Positions 10,311 to 20,071 of a stretch of 64,000 nt of DNA are shown here, piece by piece. Each line of letters starts with the position of its first letter. Positions within the stretch are counted from its first letter, which is position 1. The notes under the pieces were generated by a model that was given only the letters and a program-made list of their open reading frames with translations, had not been told where the DNA came from and made no database searches. The DNA comes from Dehalococcoidia bacterium. GTDB taxonomy: Bacteria > Chloroflexota > Dehalococcoidia > GIF9 > UBA5629. The DNA lies in NCBI GenBank assembly GCA_050011565.1, contig JBEKIW010000003.1, positions 224,001 to 288,000 on the forward strand. Reading direction: 5' to 3'. The translations under genes and the position numbers were made by a program.

Positions 10311-10406
10311 GAGGACAGCCATCTGCCATAACCCTGGGCCCAGGCTCTCTATTGACTTTAATCCATTTCGTGTTATGATAGCAGACAAAATGGCTTGGAG
10401 GAAGCA

Positions 10407-12194
10407 ATGAAAGCAGGAGCTACAGGTACAGCACTCGCCATTCTATTGCTCGCTGTTTGCCTGACACCGATACCTGTCCACGCGGATTCTCTAATGTTGA
10501 ACACTGCCCAAGGTATTGTGGGCACAAATGTGACCATTCCTTCGGTGACTGGCTACGGCCTTGGTAATTACGAGCTTTACTGGGGCGAAAATGACCTGCT
10601 GATAGGCCAGGGCGAAATTAAGCAGGGCGTAGTTTCAATAGCTTTTATTGTTCCGGAAGCCTCCAGAGGCAAACACAAAGTCACCTTGAAAATCGCCGGC
10701 AACTTTTTCACTAGCGACTTTATCGTCATTCCCGCTATAGGCCTCAGCAGTAACGAGGGTACCGTAGGCTCAAATCTGACAATTGCCGGGAAAGGCTTTA
10801 ATGCCAATGAATCGAACATACAGGTAACCTTCGACGCTAACCCGGCACAAACTGGGATTGTGGCCGGTAGTAAAGGAAGCTGGCAAATCACTATAAAAGT
10901 TCCGGCGAGCAGTCGAGGCCAGCATATTATCGATGCTGCAGGCACCACACCTGCTTCCGAGGTTGAAGATAAAGAATTCACAGTAATCCCGGAAATCGAA
11001 ACCAACCCGTCGTCCGGCTGGGTAAACACGGTAGTAGGCATATACGGCAGCGGGTTTGCTACCGGCGAAACCAACATAAAAGTAACGTACGATGGCGGAA
11101 CAGTAAAAACGGATATAGCGGCCGATGCCAAAGGTTCATGGCAGTCCAGTTTCTCAATCCCGTCATCCTCTAGAGGCAGCCACGATATAAGAGCTTACGG
11201 AGCGGTTACCAACGAAAGTGATTTACAATCAGCTAGCTTCTCCGTATCTCCGGGAATAAAACTTGAACCGGTCTCCGGTTACCTGGGCGGTGCTATTTAT
11301 GTAGGTGATGGTCTATATATCGGCGGCGTCGGCTTCGAAGCTAACGAAACCAATATCAAAGTCACTTATGACGGAGCGCTGGCTATCAGTAATATCACAG
11401 CCGATACCAAGGGCTCATGGTCAGATAAATTAGATGTGCCTCCGTCTAGCAAGGGAGAGCATATCATCGATGCTTCTGGAGAAATTACTAAAGCTAGCGA
11501 TATCGTCGACGCTATTGTAATTGTTTCACCCAAGGTAGAACTGAATCCCGCTTCGGGCGCTATAGGCAGTGATATAACGGTTCACGGCACTGGTTTTGCA
11601 GCCAATCAGGTTATAACTATCAGCTACGATGGCGCCAAGGTTGCCTCCGGCGCAGCCACAGACGCCAAAGGCGTTTTCACGACCAGCTTCAAAATTCCAC
11701 AAAGTAGAGCTGGCGACCATACAGTAACCGTTACCGACCCAACGGCCGCCGTATTCTCAATGAACTTGAGTGTAGAGTCAGTGCCGCCGCCAACACCCAA
11801 TCTCATATCTCCGGAGGCCGGCAGCGAGTTCGGGTCCTTCGGCAAAACTATCGTTACCTTCCGCTGGTCAGCCGTCGAAGACCCCAGCGGAGTCTACTAT
11901 GTATTGGAAATAAGCCCCAGTTCCGATTTTGCTGGTACAGTAATTCGAAAAGAGGGCTTAACCGTGACCGACTACACGCTGGCTAAGAACGAGGCTCTCA
12001 CCAAAGGGAACTATTATTGGAGAGTCAGAGCTGTAGACGGTGCCGATAATCAGGGCGATTGGACAAACGGACAACTCTTTAAGATTGGCGGCATCGACTG
12101 GTGGCTAATTCTACTCATCGCCGTGGCTGTCATAGTTGTAATCGTTATTATCTGGCGTTTCGCATCTGTCAACCGAAAGGACAAATGGAAATAA
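10407..12194 (+). CDS. Multi-Ig (IPT/TIG-like) repeat surface protein with C-terminal Fn3 and TM anchor
   Basis: Signal peptide (VHA-D), about five repeats of G.GF..NE.NI.VTYDG...ADxKGSW, YYWRVRA, C-terminal TM helix. Confidence 0.8.
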   Translation: MKAGATGTALAILLLAVCLTPIPVHADSLMLNTAQGIVGTNVTIPSVTGYGLGNYELYWGENDLLIGQGEIKQGVVSIAFIVPEASRGKHKVTLKIAGNFFTSDFIVIPAIGLSSNEGTVGSNLTIAGKGFNANESNIQVTFDANPAQTGIVAGSKGSWQITIKVPASSRGQHIIDAAGTTPASEVEDKEFTVIPEIETNPSSGWVNTVVGIYGSGFATGETNIKVTYDGGTVKTDIAADAKGSWQSSFSIPSSSRGSHDIRAYGAVTNESDLQSASFSVSPGIKLEPVSGYLGGAIYVGDGLYIGGVGFEANETNIKVTYDGALAISNITADTKGSWSDKLDVPPSSKGEHIIDASGEITKASDIVDAIVIVSPKVELNPASGAIGSDITVHGTGFAANQVITISYDGAKVASGAATDAKGVFTTSFKIPQSRAGDHTVTVTDPTAAVFSMNLSVESVPPPTPNLISPEAGSEFGSFGKTIVTFRWSAVEDPSGVYYVLEISPSSDFAGTVIRKEGLTVTDYTLAKNEALTKGNYYWRVRAVDGADNQGDWTNGQLFKIGGIDWWLILLIAVAVIVVIVIIWRFASVNRKDKWK

Positions 12195-12277: not shown

Positions 12278-13459
12278 ATGAGACTATTGGTTATCGGATT
12301 AGGGCAATGTGGCTCCCGAGTCGCCGATCAGTTTGTCCGTTTAAATAAGCGGGCAGCAGCGCAGTGGGGCATCAATATAGTCACGGGAACCTTTGCCGTA
12401 AATACGGACCAAACCGACCTGACTGGTTTAACTCATATAGGCACCGATTTTATGCATCGCATCCTCATCGGCGGTCGTAAGACCTGGGGACATGGTGTGG
12501 GCAAGATAAACGAGATGGGCGCCGAGTTAGCCAGAGAGGACGGTGACAAGGTAGTTGATGCCATCAGAACTGCACCCAATTTTTACCAGACCCATGCTTT
12601 CATGCTTATCGCTGGGGCGGCCGGTGGTACCGGCTCGGGTGCCATATCGGTAATCGCCCAAATGCTTAAAGAACGATACGTTGGCAAGCCGGTCTACGCC
12701 CTGGTGGTTCTTCCCTTCGAACACGAGGAAATGGCGGAGCTAAGAAGCGTTTACAATACCGCGACTTGTCTAAAGTCAATACAGTCGGTAGCCGATGGCG
12801 TCTTTCTGGCAGATAATCAACGCTATGTTAGAAAGGACGCCAGCCTGGCAATGAACCTGGATAGAATAAACTCAACCATTGCCGAACCTTTTTACGATAT
12901 GATGTGTGCCGGCGAGATAACTAGATTTAAATACGTCGGTGCTAAAGTGCTGGATGCCGGTGATATAATGCAGTCCATAGACGGCTGGACGGCAATAGGG
13001 GTTGGCCGAACCAGCATACCGCGTGCCTTCCGCTTTCCCTGGGAACTGAACAAGGTCAGCTTCAAGGAGAAGAGCGATGAGAGTCTAAGGGCTATGCAGG
13101 CTATGGACGCCGCCTTCAGTGAGCTTTCCGTCGGCTGCAGCCCCGAGGATGCCGGCAGAGCCTTATATCTGCTCTCGGCACCGGCGAAGGACATGTCTAT
13201 GGACATCGCCAAAGGTTTAGGCGACTATCTCAGAGAACTCGCAGAAAATGCAGTAATCAGAGCCGGCGACTTCCCCAGAGGTGGGGTAACCGTCGACGTC
13301 ACCGTAATACTTTCTCAGCTAGCCTTCGTCCAGAAGATAAGAGACTACTACGACAGAGCTACAGCCTTTGCTCAGACCCAGAAGGAGCGGATAAAGGAGA
13401 CAACGGGCAGGCTCCGTGACATGGAAGAAGCCGCTAAGGGATTGCCCAGCTTAATCTAG
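12278..13459 (+). CDS. Tubulin/FtsZ-superfamily GTPase, CetZ-like
   Basis: IGLGQCG, AVNTD, GHGVG, GAAGGTGSG, LPF, DN and LDAGD motifs; no FtsZ C-terminal linker or core peptide. Confidence 0.9.
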   Translation: MRLLVIGLGQCGSRVADQFVRLNKRAAAQWGINIVTGTFAVNTDQTDLTGLTHIGTDFMHRILIGGRKTWGHGVGKINEMGAELAREDGDKVVDAIRTAPNFYQTHAFMLIAGAAGGTGSGAISVIAQMLKERYVGKPVYALVVLPFEHEEMAELRSVYNTATCLKSIQSVADGVFLADNQRYVRKDASLAMNLDRINSTIAEPFYDMMCAGEITRFKYVGAKVLDAGDIMQSIDGWTAIGVGRTSIPRAFRFPWELNKVSFKEKSDESLRAMQAMDAAFSELSVGCSPEDAGRALYLLSAPAKDMSMDIAKGLGDYLRELAENAVIRAGDFPRGGVTVDVTVILSQLAFVQKIRDYYDRATAFAQTQKERIKETTGRLRDMEEAAKGLPSLI

Positions 13460-13488: not shown

Positions 13489-13514
13489 AAGGGGAGGGAT
13501 AAACCCTCCCCTTT
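13489..13514. terminator. Intrinsic terminator after the CetZ-like gene
   Basis: aaggggagggat-aa-accctccccttt hairpin between convergent genes. Confidence 0.7.
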
Positions 13515-13657: not shown

Positions 13658-15024
13658 TCAGTCAGATAATAGCCCTCTAGCCTTTCGTGGCATCCACTTA
13701 TTGGCCGCTTGAACCACCATAGCCAGGCTCATCAGATAATCATCATGACCATCACTGCTATCGACAAAGAAGTTCAATGTCTGGCTGGGTCTGTATATGC
13801 TCTTAGCTTTCTGAAGCTCAAACATCAACTCCCTATAATCTTCGGAGTCGTCCTGTTGGTAAAGCTTGAGCCTGCCGGAGTTTACAGCCGCCAATAAATC
13901 GAAGCCCGCTTCAGACTTCGTCTTTTGAGTAAATTTAAAGGGGATAACTTTACCGCCCAATGATTTACGTAAGAAGCTGGTTACGGGCTCACCAATGCCC
14001 GTGGCGTCGGCGACAATTCGGCTGCATCTCCATAAGTTTTTCAGTATGTCCACCATCTGAGGGTATAGTTCAGCATGCTTCTTGCCCACCCAGCTATAGT
14101 TCTCAACTACATGTACTCTGGGCTCCCTGGCCGGTATGTCCATACCATCATATGTAACCTCAGCAATGGTTATGACGGTGGCGTCTCTGCCCGAGCGGGT
14201 CAGAATATCATCTTCGAGCTGCTCCGACTCGCCGGCGAAATCTATGCCGGCTACGTAGACCCTGCCTTCCTGCAGGCGGCTAAGTCTGAGATGTTCGCCC
14301 CTTAGTTGGGCGATTTGCTGGTTGGTCAGGAAACCACCTCCGCCTCGAATTGGCAGTAGAGCATATTGAGTCCGGAACAGAGGATGGTCTTCGCCGAGAC
14401 GCTGCCGTTCGGACTCAATAAAGGATTTGTAACTTGGATTATATTTGGCTACTTCCTGCCAGTCATAACGGAAATGGCGCTTAATACCATCCTTCTTCTC
14501 CAGCTCCAGGTTAGTCTGCTTTACCTCTTCCAGCAAGGTAGTATCGTCCCAGGTTGTGCCATAGTGAACAGTGGTGGCATTTGAAGCTGATACCATGGGC
14601 CGGAATTCTTTGGTATATTTATCCTTAGCTACGTCCTGGGATTCGTCTATCTCTAGCAGTATGTCGGCGGTATGCCCCACTACCGAAGCTGATTCGTCAG
14701 CGGAAAGAAATATCTGTCTGGCATTGCCCAGCCTGACCATATAGCCAGCCTCGGTAAACCAGATGCCGCCGAAACCGAAATCGTTTAGCCTGTCCTTGAG
14801 CCGGCTAATGGAGATAATTGTCTGCGGTTTGAACGTTGGGGAACACTTGATGGCATTGCCGCCGGCAGCCATGAACATTGTCAGCAGTAAAACTTCGAGA
14901 TGTACCGAAAGCTCATTCTTACCACCCTGGCGGGCGATTTCGACCGAAAAGGTCAAACCTAAATTACCCTGAATGCTCTCGATGATGGCTTTGGACGCTT
15001 CAGCTTGATAGGGCGCAATTTCAT
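13658..15024 (-). CDS. Phage terminase large subunit (ATPase + RNaseH-like nuclease); apparent 1-nt frameshift at codon 5
   Basis: PYQ motif, Walker A ARQGGKN, Walker B LLEIDE, GTT coupling motif, nuclease AGIDFA, VADATGIG and GHDDYLMSLA. The ATG at 15024 gives MKLRP, out of frame with YQ. Confidence 0.85.
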
Positions 15025-15089
15025 TTCGAAAAATAAAAGGAAAAGGGAACTCGAGGAAAAACAAAACCGGCGGTCTCTTATTGAAACCT

Positions 15090-15419
15090 TTAGCTTCTTA
15101 TCAGCGTCTTAACACCCAGGGGAATAGCTATCTCAGTTAATACTTTGGTGATAGCCTCCTTAAGAGACTTCTTCTGTTCCTTGCTGATGTTATAGCGGGT
15201 TGTTACCAGCCGGGCAATAGTGGTAGCCAATCTCAGATGCAGGTCAAATTTCTCCGGCGCGGCGACAATAAGCTCCCTGAGCTTAACGCGAAGTATGGCA
15301 ATCTCCTCGTCAATACCCTCTATGCCCCTAGCTTCTTCAAGCTCCAGCCTCTCGGCTTCATTAAGTGCCTGTCCGTAAAATACCTGTCTTTTGCTTTTTG
15401 CGGCGTTCTTTCTTACCAT
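15090..15419 (-). CDS. Putative terminase small subunit-like protein
   Basis: 109-aa helical protein directly upstream of TerL; basic N-terminus, FY..AL, GIDEEIAILRVKL. Confidence 0.6.
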   Translation of the reverse strand: MVRKNAAKSKRQVFYGQALNEAERLELEEARGIEGIDEEIAILRVKLRELIVAAPEKFDLHLRLATTIARLVTTRYNISKEQKKSLKEAITKVLTEIAIPLGVKTLIRS

Positions 15420-15510
15420 TTTCCATCGCCCTGATAATTCCATAGACCAAAGCATAAGCAGCCAGGTCATATCTCTGACTATCTAATGCAACCTTCAACA
15501 ACTTCGCCAT
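15361..15510 (-). CDS. Unannotated 49-aa protein, first gene of the terminase operon
   Basis: MAKLLKVALDSQRYDLAAYALVYGIIRAMENGKKERRKKQKTGILRTGT*; starts just after the TGcTACTAT -10 and overlaps the TerS-like start. Confidence 0.55.
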   Translation of the reverse strand: MAKLLKVALDSQRYDLAAYALVYGIIRAMENGKKERRKKQKTGILRTGT

Positions 15511-15523
15511 GTCATCATCATAG

Positions 15524-15539
15524 TAGCACTATTGTTCTA
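15524..15539 (-). promoter_or_regulatory. LexA/SOS-like box overlapping the extended -10 of the terminase operon
   Basis: TAGAAC-AATA-GTGCTA, one mismatch to the GAAC-N4-GTTC palindrome. Confidence 0.6.
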
Positions 15540-15646
15540 TTTTAACAAGCTTAACTTGTCACTATTTCTTTCGGAATCGGGGCCGGCTCCGATACGATTG
15601 GCAGCCTTTGGGTTAAATAAGCCGGTGTGCTATACTATGCGCCATT

Positions 15647-16906
15647 ATGAAGCACAGGGTTGCAGTTGTCGTATTGATTAGTACCCTGCTGCTCATGCTG
15701 GCGTGTGCTAGTTCCTCACAAAAGTATATTGAGCAGGCTGATACCTATTTCGCGCAGCAACAATGGAATGAAGCTATTAGCGAATACAGCAAGGCAATTG
15801 ACGACAATCCAAACCTGGCCTTGGCCTATAGCAAACGCAGCCAGGCTTATGCCGCCAAAGAAGATTGGAATGCGGCTGTCAGCGACCTGAATAAGGCTAT
15901 CGAGCTGGACCCGAAGTTAATTGAGGCCTACAGTCATCGTGCTGCAGTTTATCATGCTCAAGGGCAATGGGACATGGCCATTAGCGACCTGAATAAGGCT
16001 ATCGAGCTGGACCCGAACCTGGCCGTGGCATATAGCAGTAGAGGCTGGACCTACGCTTCCAAAGGGCAATTAGATTTAGCGCTTGCTGATTTGAACAAAG
16101 CCATTGAGTTAGACCCCAATCTGGCTGAGTCATATCATAATCGAGGTCTGGTCTACAACGCTCAGAGTCGTTGGGACATGGGCATCGCCGATTTGAGCAA
16201 GGCAATAGAGCTTGACCCGACCAATTTCACGGCATACGAGGACCGTGGCTCCGCCTATTCCAACACCGGGAAACTCGACCTGGCCATCGCTGACCTGAAT
16301 AAGGCTATAGAGCTGAAACCTGACTATGCATTGGCTTACTATAATCGCGGCCTGGTCTACAAGGAACAGGAAAAATGGGAACCGGCAATCGCCGATTTCA
16401 ACAAAGCATTGGAACTCGAACCGAGTCTCGTCGGTATCAATCAAGTACTGGCTGAAGTATACACCAACCGAGGTTTTATCTATCGGACACAAGAGCAAAA
16501 TGACCTGGCTATAGCCGACTTTAATAAGGCTATAGAACTGGACCCGAACCTGGCTGTAGCCTACTTTAATTTGGGCTGGGTGTACAATACGCAGGGAGAG
16601 TGGGAGCTGGCTATCACCAATTTTAGCAAAGCGGTGGAGTTGGAGCCCCATTACCCGCAGGCATACAGTAACAGGGCTTACAGCTATCTCGTCACTGGAG
16701 AATTGGATAAAGCTATCGCTGACTACAGCAAGGCAATTGAGCTAGACCCAAGTTATGCCCTGGCTTATTACAATAGGGCACTTGCCTACTACAACACCGG
16801 CCAGTCTGACCTGGCAGTTGCCGATTTCAATAAAACCATTCAGCTGTCGACCGACCCAGACCTGATTTCCTTAGCTAAGGACCGCATATCCGAGATCCAA
16901 AAATAA
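15647..16906 (+). CDS. TPR-repeat lipoprotein
   Basis: MLAC lipobox; about 11 TPRs (AY.NRG...AIADxNKAIELDP). Confidence 0.92.
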   Translation: MKHRVAVVVLISTLLLMLACASSSQKYIEQADTYFAQQQWNEAISEYSKAIDDNPNLALAYSKRSQAYAAKEDWNAAVSDLNKAIELDPKLIEAYSHRAAVYHAQGQWDMAISDLNKAIELDPNLAVAYSSRGWTYASKGQLDLALADLNKAIELDPNLAESYHNRGLVYNAQSRWDMGIADLSKAIELDPTNFTAYEDRGSAYSNTGKLDLAIADLNKAIELKPDYALAYYNRGLVYKEQEKWEPAIADFNKALELEPSLVGINQVLAEVYTNRGFIYRTQEQNDLAIADFNKAIELDPNLAVAYFNLGWVYNTQGEWELAITNFSKAVELEPHYPQAYSNRAYSYLVTGELDKAIADYSKAIELDPSYALAYYNRALAYYNTGQSDLAVADFNKTIQLSTDPDLISLAKDRISEIQK

Positions 16907-18961: not shown

Positions 18962-20071
18962 CTAATCCGTCTTCTTCTCCGCCTCCACCGCTGGGGCTAG
19001 CCTGGCTGCCCTGTCATAATAGCTTTTAATTCTGTCAACATAAATCAACTCCGAAACAAGCACTGTCACTTTGGTAAAATTCTTCGAGCCATAGAAATTA
19101 CCATCTCTTATTTCAGCATTGGGTGCCAGCTCTCGTAGGCGATTACCCAGAGCCTTAATCATGTCCACATTGGCTTTTCCGGCCGGTGCCGAAAGTAGAA
19201 ACAAACCCTTACCGGCATCTTCCAGCTTGCAGTCAACCGACAACCGCATTAAAGCCAAATCCATGGCTTCCATGACTCTGAACGTATCAGAGCTCTTCCC
19301 CTCGAACCCGGCAGTTCTTCTGAACGAAAATATAGAGGATTGGAACTGGGCCTTGCCGACACCTATTGCCGTCCAACCGAATAGACTTTGCATGATATCA
19401 CCGGCGTCGAGCACTTTCCCGGCAACATACTTCGAGCCGGCTATCTCGCCAGCGCAGAGCAGGTCATAGAAGGGCAAAACTAATTCCCTATTCAAGCCGC
19501 CCATCTTTTGCGGTTGGGCTATGTTCCCCAGCAGCCCCAAACCCCCGTTATCTGCTAGAAATACAGCATCAGCCACCTTGTCAATGGTCTTTAGACACAT
19601 AGCCGTATTGTGAATACGCTGCGCATCGTCCAGCTCAGAATCAAAGGGTAAAACTAGAAGCGCGTAAACCGGCTTATCGATATGGCGCTCTTTGAGCATC
19701 TGAATCATCACCGGAAGACCGCCGGAACCAAGGCTACCGGCAGCGCCGGCAATGAACAGAAAGGCATCAGTATTTATGAAAGCACCCAGCCTCATGGCTA
19801 ACATAACCCGCTCGCTTTCATGACGCATCAGCTTGGCTCCTGCTTCCGTCGACTTATCTCCCATCCCAAGAGAGCCGCGAATAGGTACTGCCTTCAGCCA
19901 GTCCCATCCCGATTTAGTCAGTTCAGCCAGAACAGCCGGCTCATTATTAACGGCATAGGCGCAGGTAACTATGTTAGCGTGCCATTCTGCTCTCGCCATT
20001 TTATTTAACTCAGCGAATTCGCGAGCCAGTCTACAGCCGCAGTCTCCAACGCCGATAACCATCAATTTCAT
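18962..20071 (-). CDS. Divergent CetZ-like tubulin/FtsZ-superfamily protein
   Basis: Clear paralogue of 12278..13459 (PFYDLLCAGEI, KVLDAGDIMQS, GWTAIGVG) with altered GDCG and GAAGSLGSG motifs. Confidence 0.85.
   Translation of the reverse strand: MKLMVIGVGDCGCRLAREFAELNKMARAEWHANIVTCAYAVNNEPAVLAELTKSGWDWLKAVPIRGSLGMGDKSTEAGAKLMRHESERVMLAMRLGAFINTDAFLFIAGAAGSLGSGGLPVMIQMLKERHIDKPVYALLVLPFDSELDDAQRIHNTAMCLKTIDKVADAVFLADNGGLGLLGNIAQPQKMGGLNRELVLPFYDLLCAGEIAGSKYVAGKVLDAGDIMQSLFGWTAIGVGKAQFQSSIFSFRRTAGFEGKSSDTFRVMEAMDLALMRLSVDCKLEDAGKGLFLLSAPAGKANVDMIKALGNRLRELAPNAEIRDGNFYGSKNFTKVTVLVSELIYVDRIKSYYDRAARLAPAVEAEKKTD

Follow-up and report, generated by a model that had tools for sequence, protein, structure and literature searches.

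Gene transfer agents (GTAs) of the RcGTA type in Alphaproteobacteria are phage-derived head-tail clusters that start with genes for the small terminase subunit, the large terminase subunit and the portal (TerS-TerL-portal), are conserved within their clade and regulated by the host, and can have parts at separate loci. The PBSX-like defective prophages of Bacillus are chromosomally fixed and SOS-inducible, cannot propagate themselves, and hold a full set of head, tail and lysis genes in one block. Here we compare with these systems a terminase operon from a Dehalococcoidia bacterium (genome G000), found in a 64-kb stretch of contig C3 (G000:C3:224001-288000, the window that was analyzed, whose own numbering is used below unless a contig is named). 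The operon comprises a 49-codon gene (orf49), a TerS-family gene and TerL. In our reading, to which we assign a probability of roughly two in three, it is a vertically inherited packaging operon that has been split from its partner genes, is probably repressed through a LexA-type box, and has been left stranded in this genome, as a relic, by loss of the head genes and a frameshift at the start of TerL.

The element to which the operon would belong resembles RcGTA in its head-tail cluster of ~13-15 kb with TerS-TerL-portal first, in following host taxonomy, in being under purifying selection, in its split loci and in carrying a regulator site of host type. It differs from RcGTA in being known here from genes alone, in its apparently LexA-like rather than CtrA/GafA-type control, in the many copies that have an adjacent integrase, in the repeated loss of head genes with the terminase kept and, in G000, in the absence of capsid and portal. 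Like PBSX it is a chromosomally fixed phage-like element, with SOS induction suggested here by the box only; unlike PBSX, the set is split and, in G000, headless. The contiguous form found in other lineages is also reminiscent of capsid-forming satellites, i.e., capsid-forming phage-inducible chromosomal islands (cf-PICIs): it is ~13-15 kb long, with an integrase followed by packaging and head genes and few tail genes, and no replication or lysis module was recognized in it. However, it brings its own genes for TerL and tail-like proteins, its sites are syntenic and fixed across whole orders, and, unlike for cf-PICIs, we know of no helper phage for it. In phage GIL01, host LexA directly represses the lytic promoters (PMC4551915). 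Our locus is alike in having a LexA-type box within a promoter of phage-derived genes and no recognized element-encoded CI-type repressor, but the box here is putative and one position off the perfect palindrome (GTGC for GTTC), and the product of an element gene, s104, is an alternative binder.

In the full-text literature (outside subscription journals and supplements) we found no conserved terminase/portal set in Dehalococcoidia, no GTA, and no LexA control of either. A recent preprint on Dehalococcoides viruses (bioRxiv 10.64898/2026.09.15.751708) concerns a different, tail-less element (IME1), and the words terminase, portal and GTA have 0 occurrences in its text. Among the Dehalococcoidia are the main organohalide-respiring bacteria used in bioremediation, and little is understood of how genes, such as those in dehalogenase islands, move between them. 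A packaging and particle gene set that is passed on with the chromosome throughout the class and in much of the phylum, both of its operons bearing a LexA-type switch, would be a candidate vehicle for DNA exchange where, as in this phylum, no GTA has been described. What the window holds is more modest, apparently a relic without head genes whose start codon is damaged, rather than a functional particle system.

The terminase operon and its inheritance

The three open reading frames (ORFs) lie co-oriented on the minus strand (13658..15064, 468 codons from a TTG; 15090..15470, 126 codons; 15361..15510, 49 codons) between two host genes. One encodes a CetZ-like tubulin (12278..13459, plus strand, convergent with TerL; PF00091 1.3e-30, CetZ_C 3.5e-14) and the other a tetratricopeptide-repeat (TPR) protein (15647..16906, plus strand, the divergent neighbor within the genus). 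ORF calls and Pfam agree on this arrangement, which is the one given in the first-pass annotation of the window.

Homology and predicted structure identify the largest ORF as a true large terminase. Searches with the protein by itself give a sub-threshold Pfam match (Terminase_6C, E 1.3e-4, just under the cut-off), weak PHROGs matches to TerL and, in a PDB sequence search with the TerL sequence alone, no match. The profile of the TerL family matches the TerL nuclease domains 5tge and 5m1f in the PDB (3e-5 to 8e-5), and tblastn aligns 93-94% of the length with the terminase of Bacillus phage vB_BboS-125 (30.7% identity, 3e-45), where the portal follows the terminase gene, and with that of BCD7 (8e-36). 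The AlphaFold model (pLDDT 90.3) has the HK97, D6E, Sf6 and T4 large terminases as its best PDB matches in Foldseek (E 7.5e-18 to 6e-14), and its ATPase domain resembles the P74-26, T4 and D6E structures. Compared with the solved enzymes (HK97 6z6d, D6E 5oee, Sf6 4iei, T4 3cpe) the model has the same two-domain fold, with TM up to 0.65, but the identity is only 11-16% and this copy has no portal or capsid with it. The ATPase motifs (Walker A RQGGKNE, Walker B LLEIDE, coupling YGTTW) and the RNase H-like nuclease motifs (GIDFAG, DATGIG, HDD) are intact. In an alignment with TerL from 58 genomic relatives, two viral contigs and one phage, the patterns RQxGKNE, LLExDE, YGTxW, GxDxxG, DATGxG and HDD are shared by this copy, the portal-linked copies and the Bacillus phage. 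The last residue of Walker A is N, not S/T, a trait shared with the vB_BboS-125 enzyme.

Directly preceding TerL in the operon is a gene that was called as a 126-aa ORF, but because relatives carry stop codons in its first 17 codons this call is over-extended, and the real gene should encode 109 aa from the ATG at 15419 (15090..15419, minus strand). Its assignment to TerS comes from the family: among 56 aligned members, 22 match phrog_1889, 18 phrog_509 and 13 phrog_370, all three annotated as 'terminase small subunit'. For the copy in the window there are 0 PHROG family matches, and it does not have the N-terminal GNQNARKHGFYS-type motif of many relatives, on which these matches probably depend. 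Pfam, NCBIfam and PHROGs gave nothing useful for the window's 109-aa and 49-aa proteins. The TerS monomer model is a helical bundle (pLDDT 71.5) with no match at E <= 0.001 in a BFVD fold search, and the TerS profile found chance-level matches only among PDB sequences. The first gene, orf49 (15361..15510, minus strand), overlaps the start of TerS by ~58 nt (15361-15419), with TerS in the +1 frame in every genome examined; we treat them as two genes, though they may be joined by a programmed frameshift. Similar 48-aa proteins form unnamed Chloroflexota clusters in the ESM Atlas.

Most of the genomes that we compared are metagenome-assembled, and absences outside assembled colinear regions may be gaps. 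TerL is present as a single copy in G000. Counting G000 itself, 37/41 close genomes carry it (24/25 of those of high quality), with identities of 63-90%. In a class-level sample of 151 genomes it occurs in 103, and in 78 of the 109 high-quality members; in a sample of 151 genomes from the phylum it is found at E <= 1e-10 in 58, a tally that includes two unpublished genomes. Families of the phylum are either near-all positive (5/5, 9/10, 8/8, 7/7) or all negative (0/9, 0/10, 0/9). Named records with TerL are Dehalococcoidia and Dehalococcoidales assemblies from metagenomes; two of our genomes, G094 and G169, are Dehalococcoides mccartyi, in many strains of which a 457-aa TerL homolog is annotated as 'hypothetical protein'.

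The TerL tree (58 rows) needs 26 changes among 27 host-family labels, the minimum possible, compared with a mean of 43.7 after shuffling and 0/200 shuffles as low; the families are coded labels rather than a genome tree. Among the best 80 species loci of Dehalococcoidales, the 2 kb downstream of TerL hold the convergent CetZ-like gene in 35, the portal in 7 and other genes in 34, and in 4 the flank is too short. The adjacent CetZ-like genes are 52-100% identical to that of the window, and TerL identity drops in step with theirs. The CetZ-like gene is thus a conserved neighbor of TerL and serves as the anchor for synteny, while a functional link between the two is a candidate at most.

Purifying selection is seen in all three genes. 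Pairwise dN/dS by the Nei-Gojobori method (NG86) is 0.047-0.146 for TerL in the 28 genus pairs with usable dS, with 8 pairs involving G013 being saturated. In pairs with estimable dS, which reaches 2.9, the ratio stays near 0.1. For TerS outside the overlap the median is 0.07, and for codons 1-30 of orf49 it is 0.086 (35 pairs) against 0.41 in the overlap, the TerS and orf49 values coming from ungapped sub-ranges. Pairs in which both genomes have lost the head genes, as described below, are no different: TerL gives 0.136 for G000-G004 (dS 0.43) and 0.120 for G001-G008, and a capsid-less pair of D. mccartyi type gives 0.099 for TerL and 0.06 for TerS at dS 0.30-0.37.

These results bear directly on whether the operon is simply what remains of a recent prophage in ordinary decay, with no conservation at the level of the host. 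Such an origin would fit the phage relatives of the terminase family, the existence of integrase-linked copies, and the broken start codon and deleted head genes of G000. However, it would not be expected to leave the same CetZ-adjacent locus in 35/80 species loci, dN/dS values this low at such large dS, or a tree that follows host families. In addition, GC content near the locus is unremarkable (0.46-0.51 vs 0.41-0.54 over the whole window), and homologs of the integrase of viral contig L039, which carries the contiguous element, occur in G000 on contigs C1 and C6 only, not on C3. We consider a recent prophage highly improbable. The evidence supports an operon that is host-inherited, syntenic and under purifying selection, and the first-pass annotation, which had set the locus apart from a decaying prophage, is borne out by the checks that it proposed: conservation (37/41), synteny (the shared CetZ site), agreement of the tree with the host (26 changes) and dN/dS below 1 (0.047-0.146).

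Deletion of the head genes and frameshift in TerL

Weak matches to PF05065, a capsid family, in relatives lay on the contigs that carry TerL, and the other genes of the element were traced from there. In G034 the order is a small gene, TerL, portal (PF05133 1.9e-21, phrog_64 4e-31), three host-type genes, a scaffold-like gene, the major head protein (phrog_212 6.7e-68) and an SU10-adaptor-like gene. Among the 48 IMG/VR contigs carrying this TerL, 45 have a portal homolog, and the usual order is orf49, TerS, TerL, (helix-turn-helix gene s104), portal, scaffold, capsid, adaptor and a 113-aa gene. Contig L039 continues with genes of 247, 652, 135 (phrog_644) and 446 aa (Laminin_G_3, baseplate- or virion-protein-like); upstream it encodes a tyrosine integrase, an HNH endonuclease and a methyltransferase. 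In class loci of other families the portal follows TerL within the fetched stretch in 25/40. The head-tail set is contiguous in other orders, whereas in this order it is split from TerL by ~26-30 kb.

Specifically, in G005, which belongs to the same genus, TerL and a block of s104, portal, scaffold, capsid, adaptor and the 113-aa gene are 29 kb apart on one strand, the block being embedded in a region colinear with G000:C3:203-241 kb. In G000 about 270 bp take the place of the 4.9 kb from the portal to the 113-aa gene; the genes on either side are still there, and the deletion lies inside an assembled colinear stretch. A tblastn search of the whole 99.2%-complete genome with the G034 and G005 proteins found no portal, scaffold, capsid or adaptor, protein searches concur, and the portal profiles PF04860 and PF05133 have no match in G000. 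At C3:209.6-217.0 kb s104 survives, and after it come intact ORFs of 240, 103, 372, 941, 136 and 399 codons, which include homologs of the L039 tail-like genes at 64-84% identity. The tail-like homologs end up 7.5-14 kb before the start of the window, and s104 and the tail-like genes 21-28 kb from the operon. The first-pass statement that no portal, capsid or tail gene is recognizable in the 64 kb can thus be extended to the whole genome for portal and capsid, while tail-like homologs are present outside the window.

The second lesion is in TerL itself. In relatives the gene starts with an ATG (MKLRPYQ). The corresponding ancestral ATG in G000 (15024..15022, minus strand) has lost the TerL frame because the C-run at 15011-15013, after codon 4, is one base short, and its own frame stops after 21 codons; the segment affected is 15010..15024. 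The 468-codon ORF is open only because an in-frame TTG (15064) occurs 13 codons upstream, from which translation may start. The state with the 1-base deletion is also found in contigs of three public runs; one belongs to a different sample and study, and the other two may derive from the source sample. A fourth run contains a roughly 99%-identical strain with an extra base that restores the TerL frame, and its contig differs by 3 other bases and one inserted base over 351 overlapping bases. The first-pass description of TerL as intact holds for the Walker A/B, coupling and nuclease motifs, but not for the ancestral start.

Because the head genes are deleted and the TerL start is frameshifted, G000 would have no working packaging arm. 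This is where we part from the first-pass annotation, which saw in the operon the packaging arm of a split, host-controlled particle system: the split, the inheritance with the host and the LexA-type box stand, the working arm does not. That a GTA-like system under SOS control still uses this operon in G000 is very unlikely, and largely refuted. The split, the vertical inheritance, the purifying selection and the shared box are real in the clade, and s104 and the tail-like genes are still intact ORFs, all of which count in its favor; however, no homolog of portal, scaffold, capsid or adaptor was found, the syntenic site is assembled and empty, and the conserved start of TerL is frameshifted. 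The sole HK97-type capsid gene in G000 (C1:724.9-726.1 kb) lies on a strain-specific integrase island with 0/40 relatives carrying it.

Head-gene loss extends well beyond this strain. Among 40 relatives, TerL is present in 36, the portal in 16, the capsid in 14 and the 652-aa gene in 17, and 20 of the 36 with TerL have neither portal nor capsid. The first-pass annotation had named an absence of structural genes elsewhere in the genome as telling against its proposal, and for head genes this absence is what we find, in G000 and in these 20. The element's capsid occurs in 0/3 genomes of D. mccartyi type and in 2/2 of a sister genus.

Several further observations concern these regions. The ~270-bp scar holds direct repeats and hairpins. 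A DNA search of the deletion junction against five congeners found no shared junction and mainly short dispersed repeats, which gives no sign that the deletion predates the G000-G004 split. Dispersed repeats of 27-43 bp flank s104 (G000:C3:216749-216775 and 217099-217141) and have many sites in congeners; G001:C16:25-357 is a four-copy array of a dispersed repeat with 102-bp spacing. At the D. mccartyi loci L083 and L084, TerS-TerL and s104-portal are divergent and the capsid is absent; the D. mccartyi portal is 454 aa long in most strains and 188, 245 or 303 aa in some. The strain-specific island (G000:C1:720208-729987, locus L023 10208-19987) encodes a tyrosine integrase, an HTH_36 protein, the HK97-type capsid (PF05065 2e-45), a 382-aa protein with no assignment and a serine-recombinase fragment, and no terminase was noticed among the ORFs examined. 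Two D. mccartyi genomes likewise carry strong PF05065 capsids in similar open frames (403 and 410 aa).

The LexA-type box at the two promoters

The first-pass annotation placed a LexA-type GAAC-N4-GTTC box on the operon promoter. No exact copy of this motif exists there; the site is GAACAATAGTGC (15526-15537), which has one mismatch (GTGC for GTTC), and one-mismatch sites occur in the window at chance level (16 found vs 18.9 expected). The site is the core of a 16-bp palindrome-like box, TAGAAC-N4-GTGCTA (TAGAACAATAGTGCTA, 15539-15524, minus strand), placed in the 17-nt spacer between a -35 TTGTTA (15548-15543) and a -10 TACTAT (15525-15520), both read from the sequence. A promoter scan proposes an overlapping TTAAAA-17-TATGAT (15545-15517), and the promoter-like region covers 15517..15548 on the minus strand. 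Because the start codon follows within about 10-13 nt, the mRNA may be nearly leaderless.

The argument for the box comes from conservation and from its specificity in the genome. An alignment of 40 upstream regions, otherwise unalignable, retains two conserved features, GACA...CTTG and TAGAACA-N3-GT.CT-A..AT. The columns of the former, which belong to an imperfect palindrome further upstream (GACAAG-N5-CTTGTT, 15544..15560, minus strand), are conserved in at least 80% of the 40 promoters. Scored with a position weight matrix built from 28 distinct sites, the 2-Mb genome (both strands) has 11 sites at >= 14, with the s104 promoter first (27.6; C3:217060-217075, 14 nt before the s104 start), the orf49 promoter second (26.7) and the third at 18.6. 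Exact copies of TAGAACNNNNGTKCTA occur twice per genome in G005, G054, G094 and G169, before TerS and before s104-portal, and in other families similar boxes precede TerL, scaffold or capsid genes. Conservation and genome-wide specificity show that the box is, by the criteria of sequence comparison, a real cis-element. The proposed LexA-type box thus survives as a conserved one-mismatch site rather than as an exact one, and the suggestion that unlinked structural genes might carry the same box is confirmed by the promoter of the s104/tail operon, the best-scoring site in the genome.

The box is LexA-like in sequence and is placed like an operator, and the candidate binders are LexA, a LexA paralog and s104. 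Fernandez de Henestrosa et al. (J Bacteriol 2002) are reported to have found that the LexA of Dehalococcoides ethenogenes binds the Gram-positive GAAC-N4-GTTC box. In D. mccartyi (G094, G169) and G054 the nearest other sites, TAGAACAAGTGTTCTT and TAGAACTAATGTTCTC, are located 24-39 nt before lexA. G000 has two LexA-like genes, C2:56029 (+) and C1:685227 (-), with PF01726 matches of 8e-17 and 5e-15, and upstream of the second there is TAGAACAATGGTTTGT together with two degenerate repeats, making three LexA-type boxes in tandem.

Retention of the terminase without a capsid

We propose that an ancient phage-derived head-tail element, endemic to Chloroflexota, had orf49, TerS and TerL as its packaging operon. 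In this order the operon would have become separated from the half comprising s104, portal, scaffold, capsid, adaptor and the tail-like genes, and have been fixed beside the CetZ-like gene, followed by vertical inheritance under purifying selection. Both halves would have stayed under the same LexA-type box, repressed by LexA or a LexA-like repressor and released on DNA damage. In G000 the portal-to-adaptor block has been deleted and the ancestral start of TerL disconnected, such that capsids of its own would be neither built nor filled. The operon would be the relic of a split, possibly GTA-like system, caught either at a first step of decay or with a capsid-independent role. It would, in other words, be a domesticated or defective phage-derived element with an SOS-type switch of the host, the unusual feature being that the terminase outlives the capsid.

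This repeated survival of the terminase under purifying selection is odd, and cultivated D. mccartyi, which has no cognate capsid, can be contrasted with its capsid-bearing sister genus. It could mean that TerS-TerL was kept after capsid loss for a role of its own or one involving foreign parts: the pair might package DNA into procapsids of related elements or phages, as in piracy or interference, or take part in SOS-triggered DNA processing. In favor of such an exapted or trans-acting terminase, TerL is visibly broken in only 4 of the 20 headless relatives (from a reading of match rows), the dN/dS values of the headless pairs and of the capsid-less D. mccartyi type are low, the catalytic motifs are unchanged, the box is kept on both promoters, and unrelated HK97-type capsids are encoded elsewhere in G000, G094 and G169. 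However, the activity itself is a candidate drawn from sequence, and PADLOC matched no defense family to TerL, TerS, orf49 or the tail-like proteins, with weak helix-turn-helix matches only for s104. The loss of the ancestral TerL start in G000 is a better fit to decay in this strain. TerL is broken or a fragment inside a contig in 5/36 relatives (G012, G014, G020, G022 and G035, again from match rows), and 4 of these 5 copies are in genomes without head genes. Furthermore, because G004, G001 and G118 keep TerL without any PF05065 capsid, a capsid acting in trans must there come from outside the genome. Taken together, we regard an exapted terminase as possible but improbable, and prefer the stranded relic.

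Several observations weigh against the preferred reading. Lineages without a capsid retain TerL at low dN/dS, which suggests that 'relic' is an incomplete description. A tyrosine integrase homolog lies just upstream in 18 of the 48 contiguous IMG/VR copies. Genomes of genus g43 (family f24, ~3-Mb genomes; loci L085 and L207-L212) have 5-11 TerL matches each, and the full-length copies examined are at least 4 diverged paralogs per genome, with 73-84% identity; the match of the tree to host families could also come from a mobile element restricted in its hosts. For the box, the position weight matrix was trained on TerS promoters including that of G000, leaving the s104 site as the only independent one. 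No such box is present at the other lexA paralog of G000 (C2:56029) or at recA (C5:58825-59643), and none of the 12 exact GAAC-N4-GTTC sites in G000 is at a recognizable SOS gene. The binder of the box could therefore be s104 or another repressor.

The same data speak to the nature of the parent element. Domestication of a GTA-like or PBSX-like kind is suggested by the clade-structured, mostly single-copy distribution at the scale of class and phylum, the tree that follows families, the purifying selection, the integrase-free syntenic fixation in this order, the fragmentation by host genes and the host-type operator. The adjacent integrases and the paralogs of g43 would point instead to a phage or capsid-forming satellite that is still mobile, and because of the integrase-linked contiguous copies the parent element may be, or may have been, a small temperate phage or satellite. 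For lineages that keep the head genes we suggest, as a rather doubtful extension, that they make GTA-like particles under LexA control and that TerS-TerL has a second, capsid-independent or trans-acting role, which would have preserved it once the capsid was lost.

Some minor features of the locus and its surroundings were also noted. A GC-rich hairpin (13489..13513, strand unassigned) between the convergent CetZ-like gene and TerL is terminator-like on both strands. Some of the g43 copies of TerL adjoin a portal, and others are orphans among housekeeping genes (glmS, cmk, an ABC transporter). CetZ is usually regarded as archaeal; the window has a second CetZ-like paralog at 18962-20071 (minus strand), 5.5 kb from the first (12278-13459, plus strand), both with Tubulin and CetZ_C domains, and at locus L010 another CetZ1-like match (43% identity) also adjoins the operon. 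Upstream of the CetZ-like gene, at 10395-12194 (plus strand), the window encodes a 599-aa protein that combines repeated IPT/TIG and Ig-like domains with a signal-like N-terminus and, at the C-terminus, a membrane helix, and in G005 large surface proteins related to it sit between the two halves of the element.

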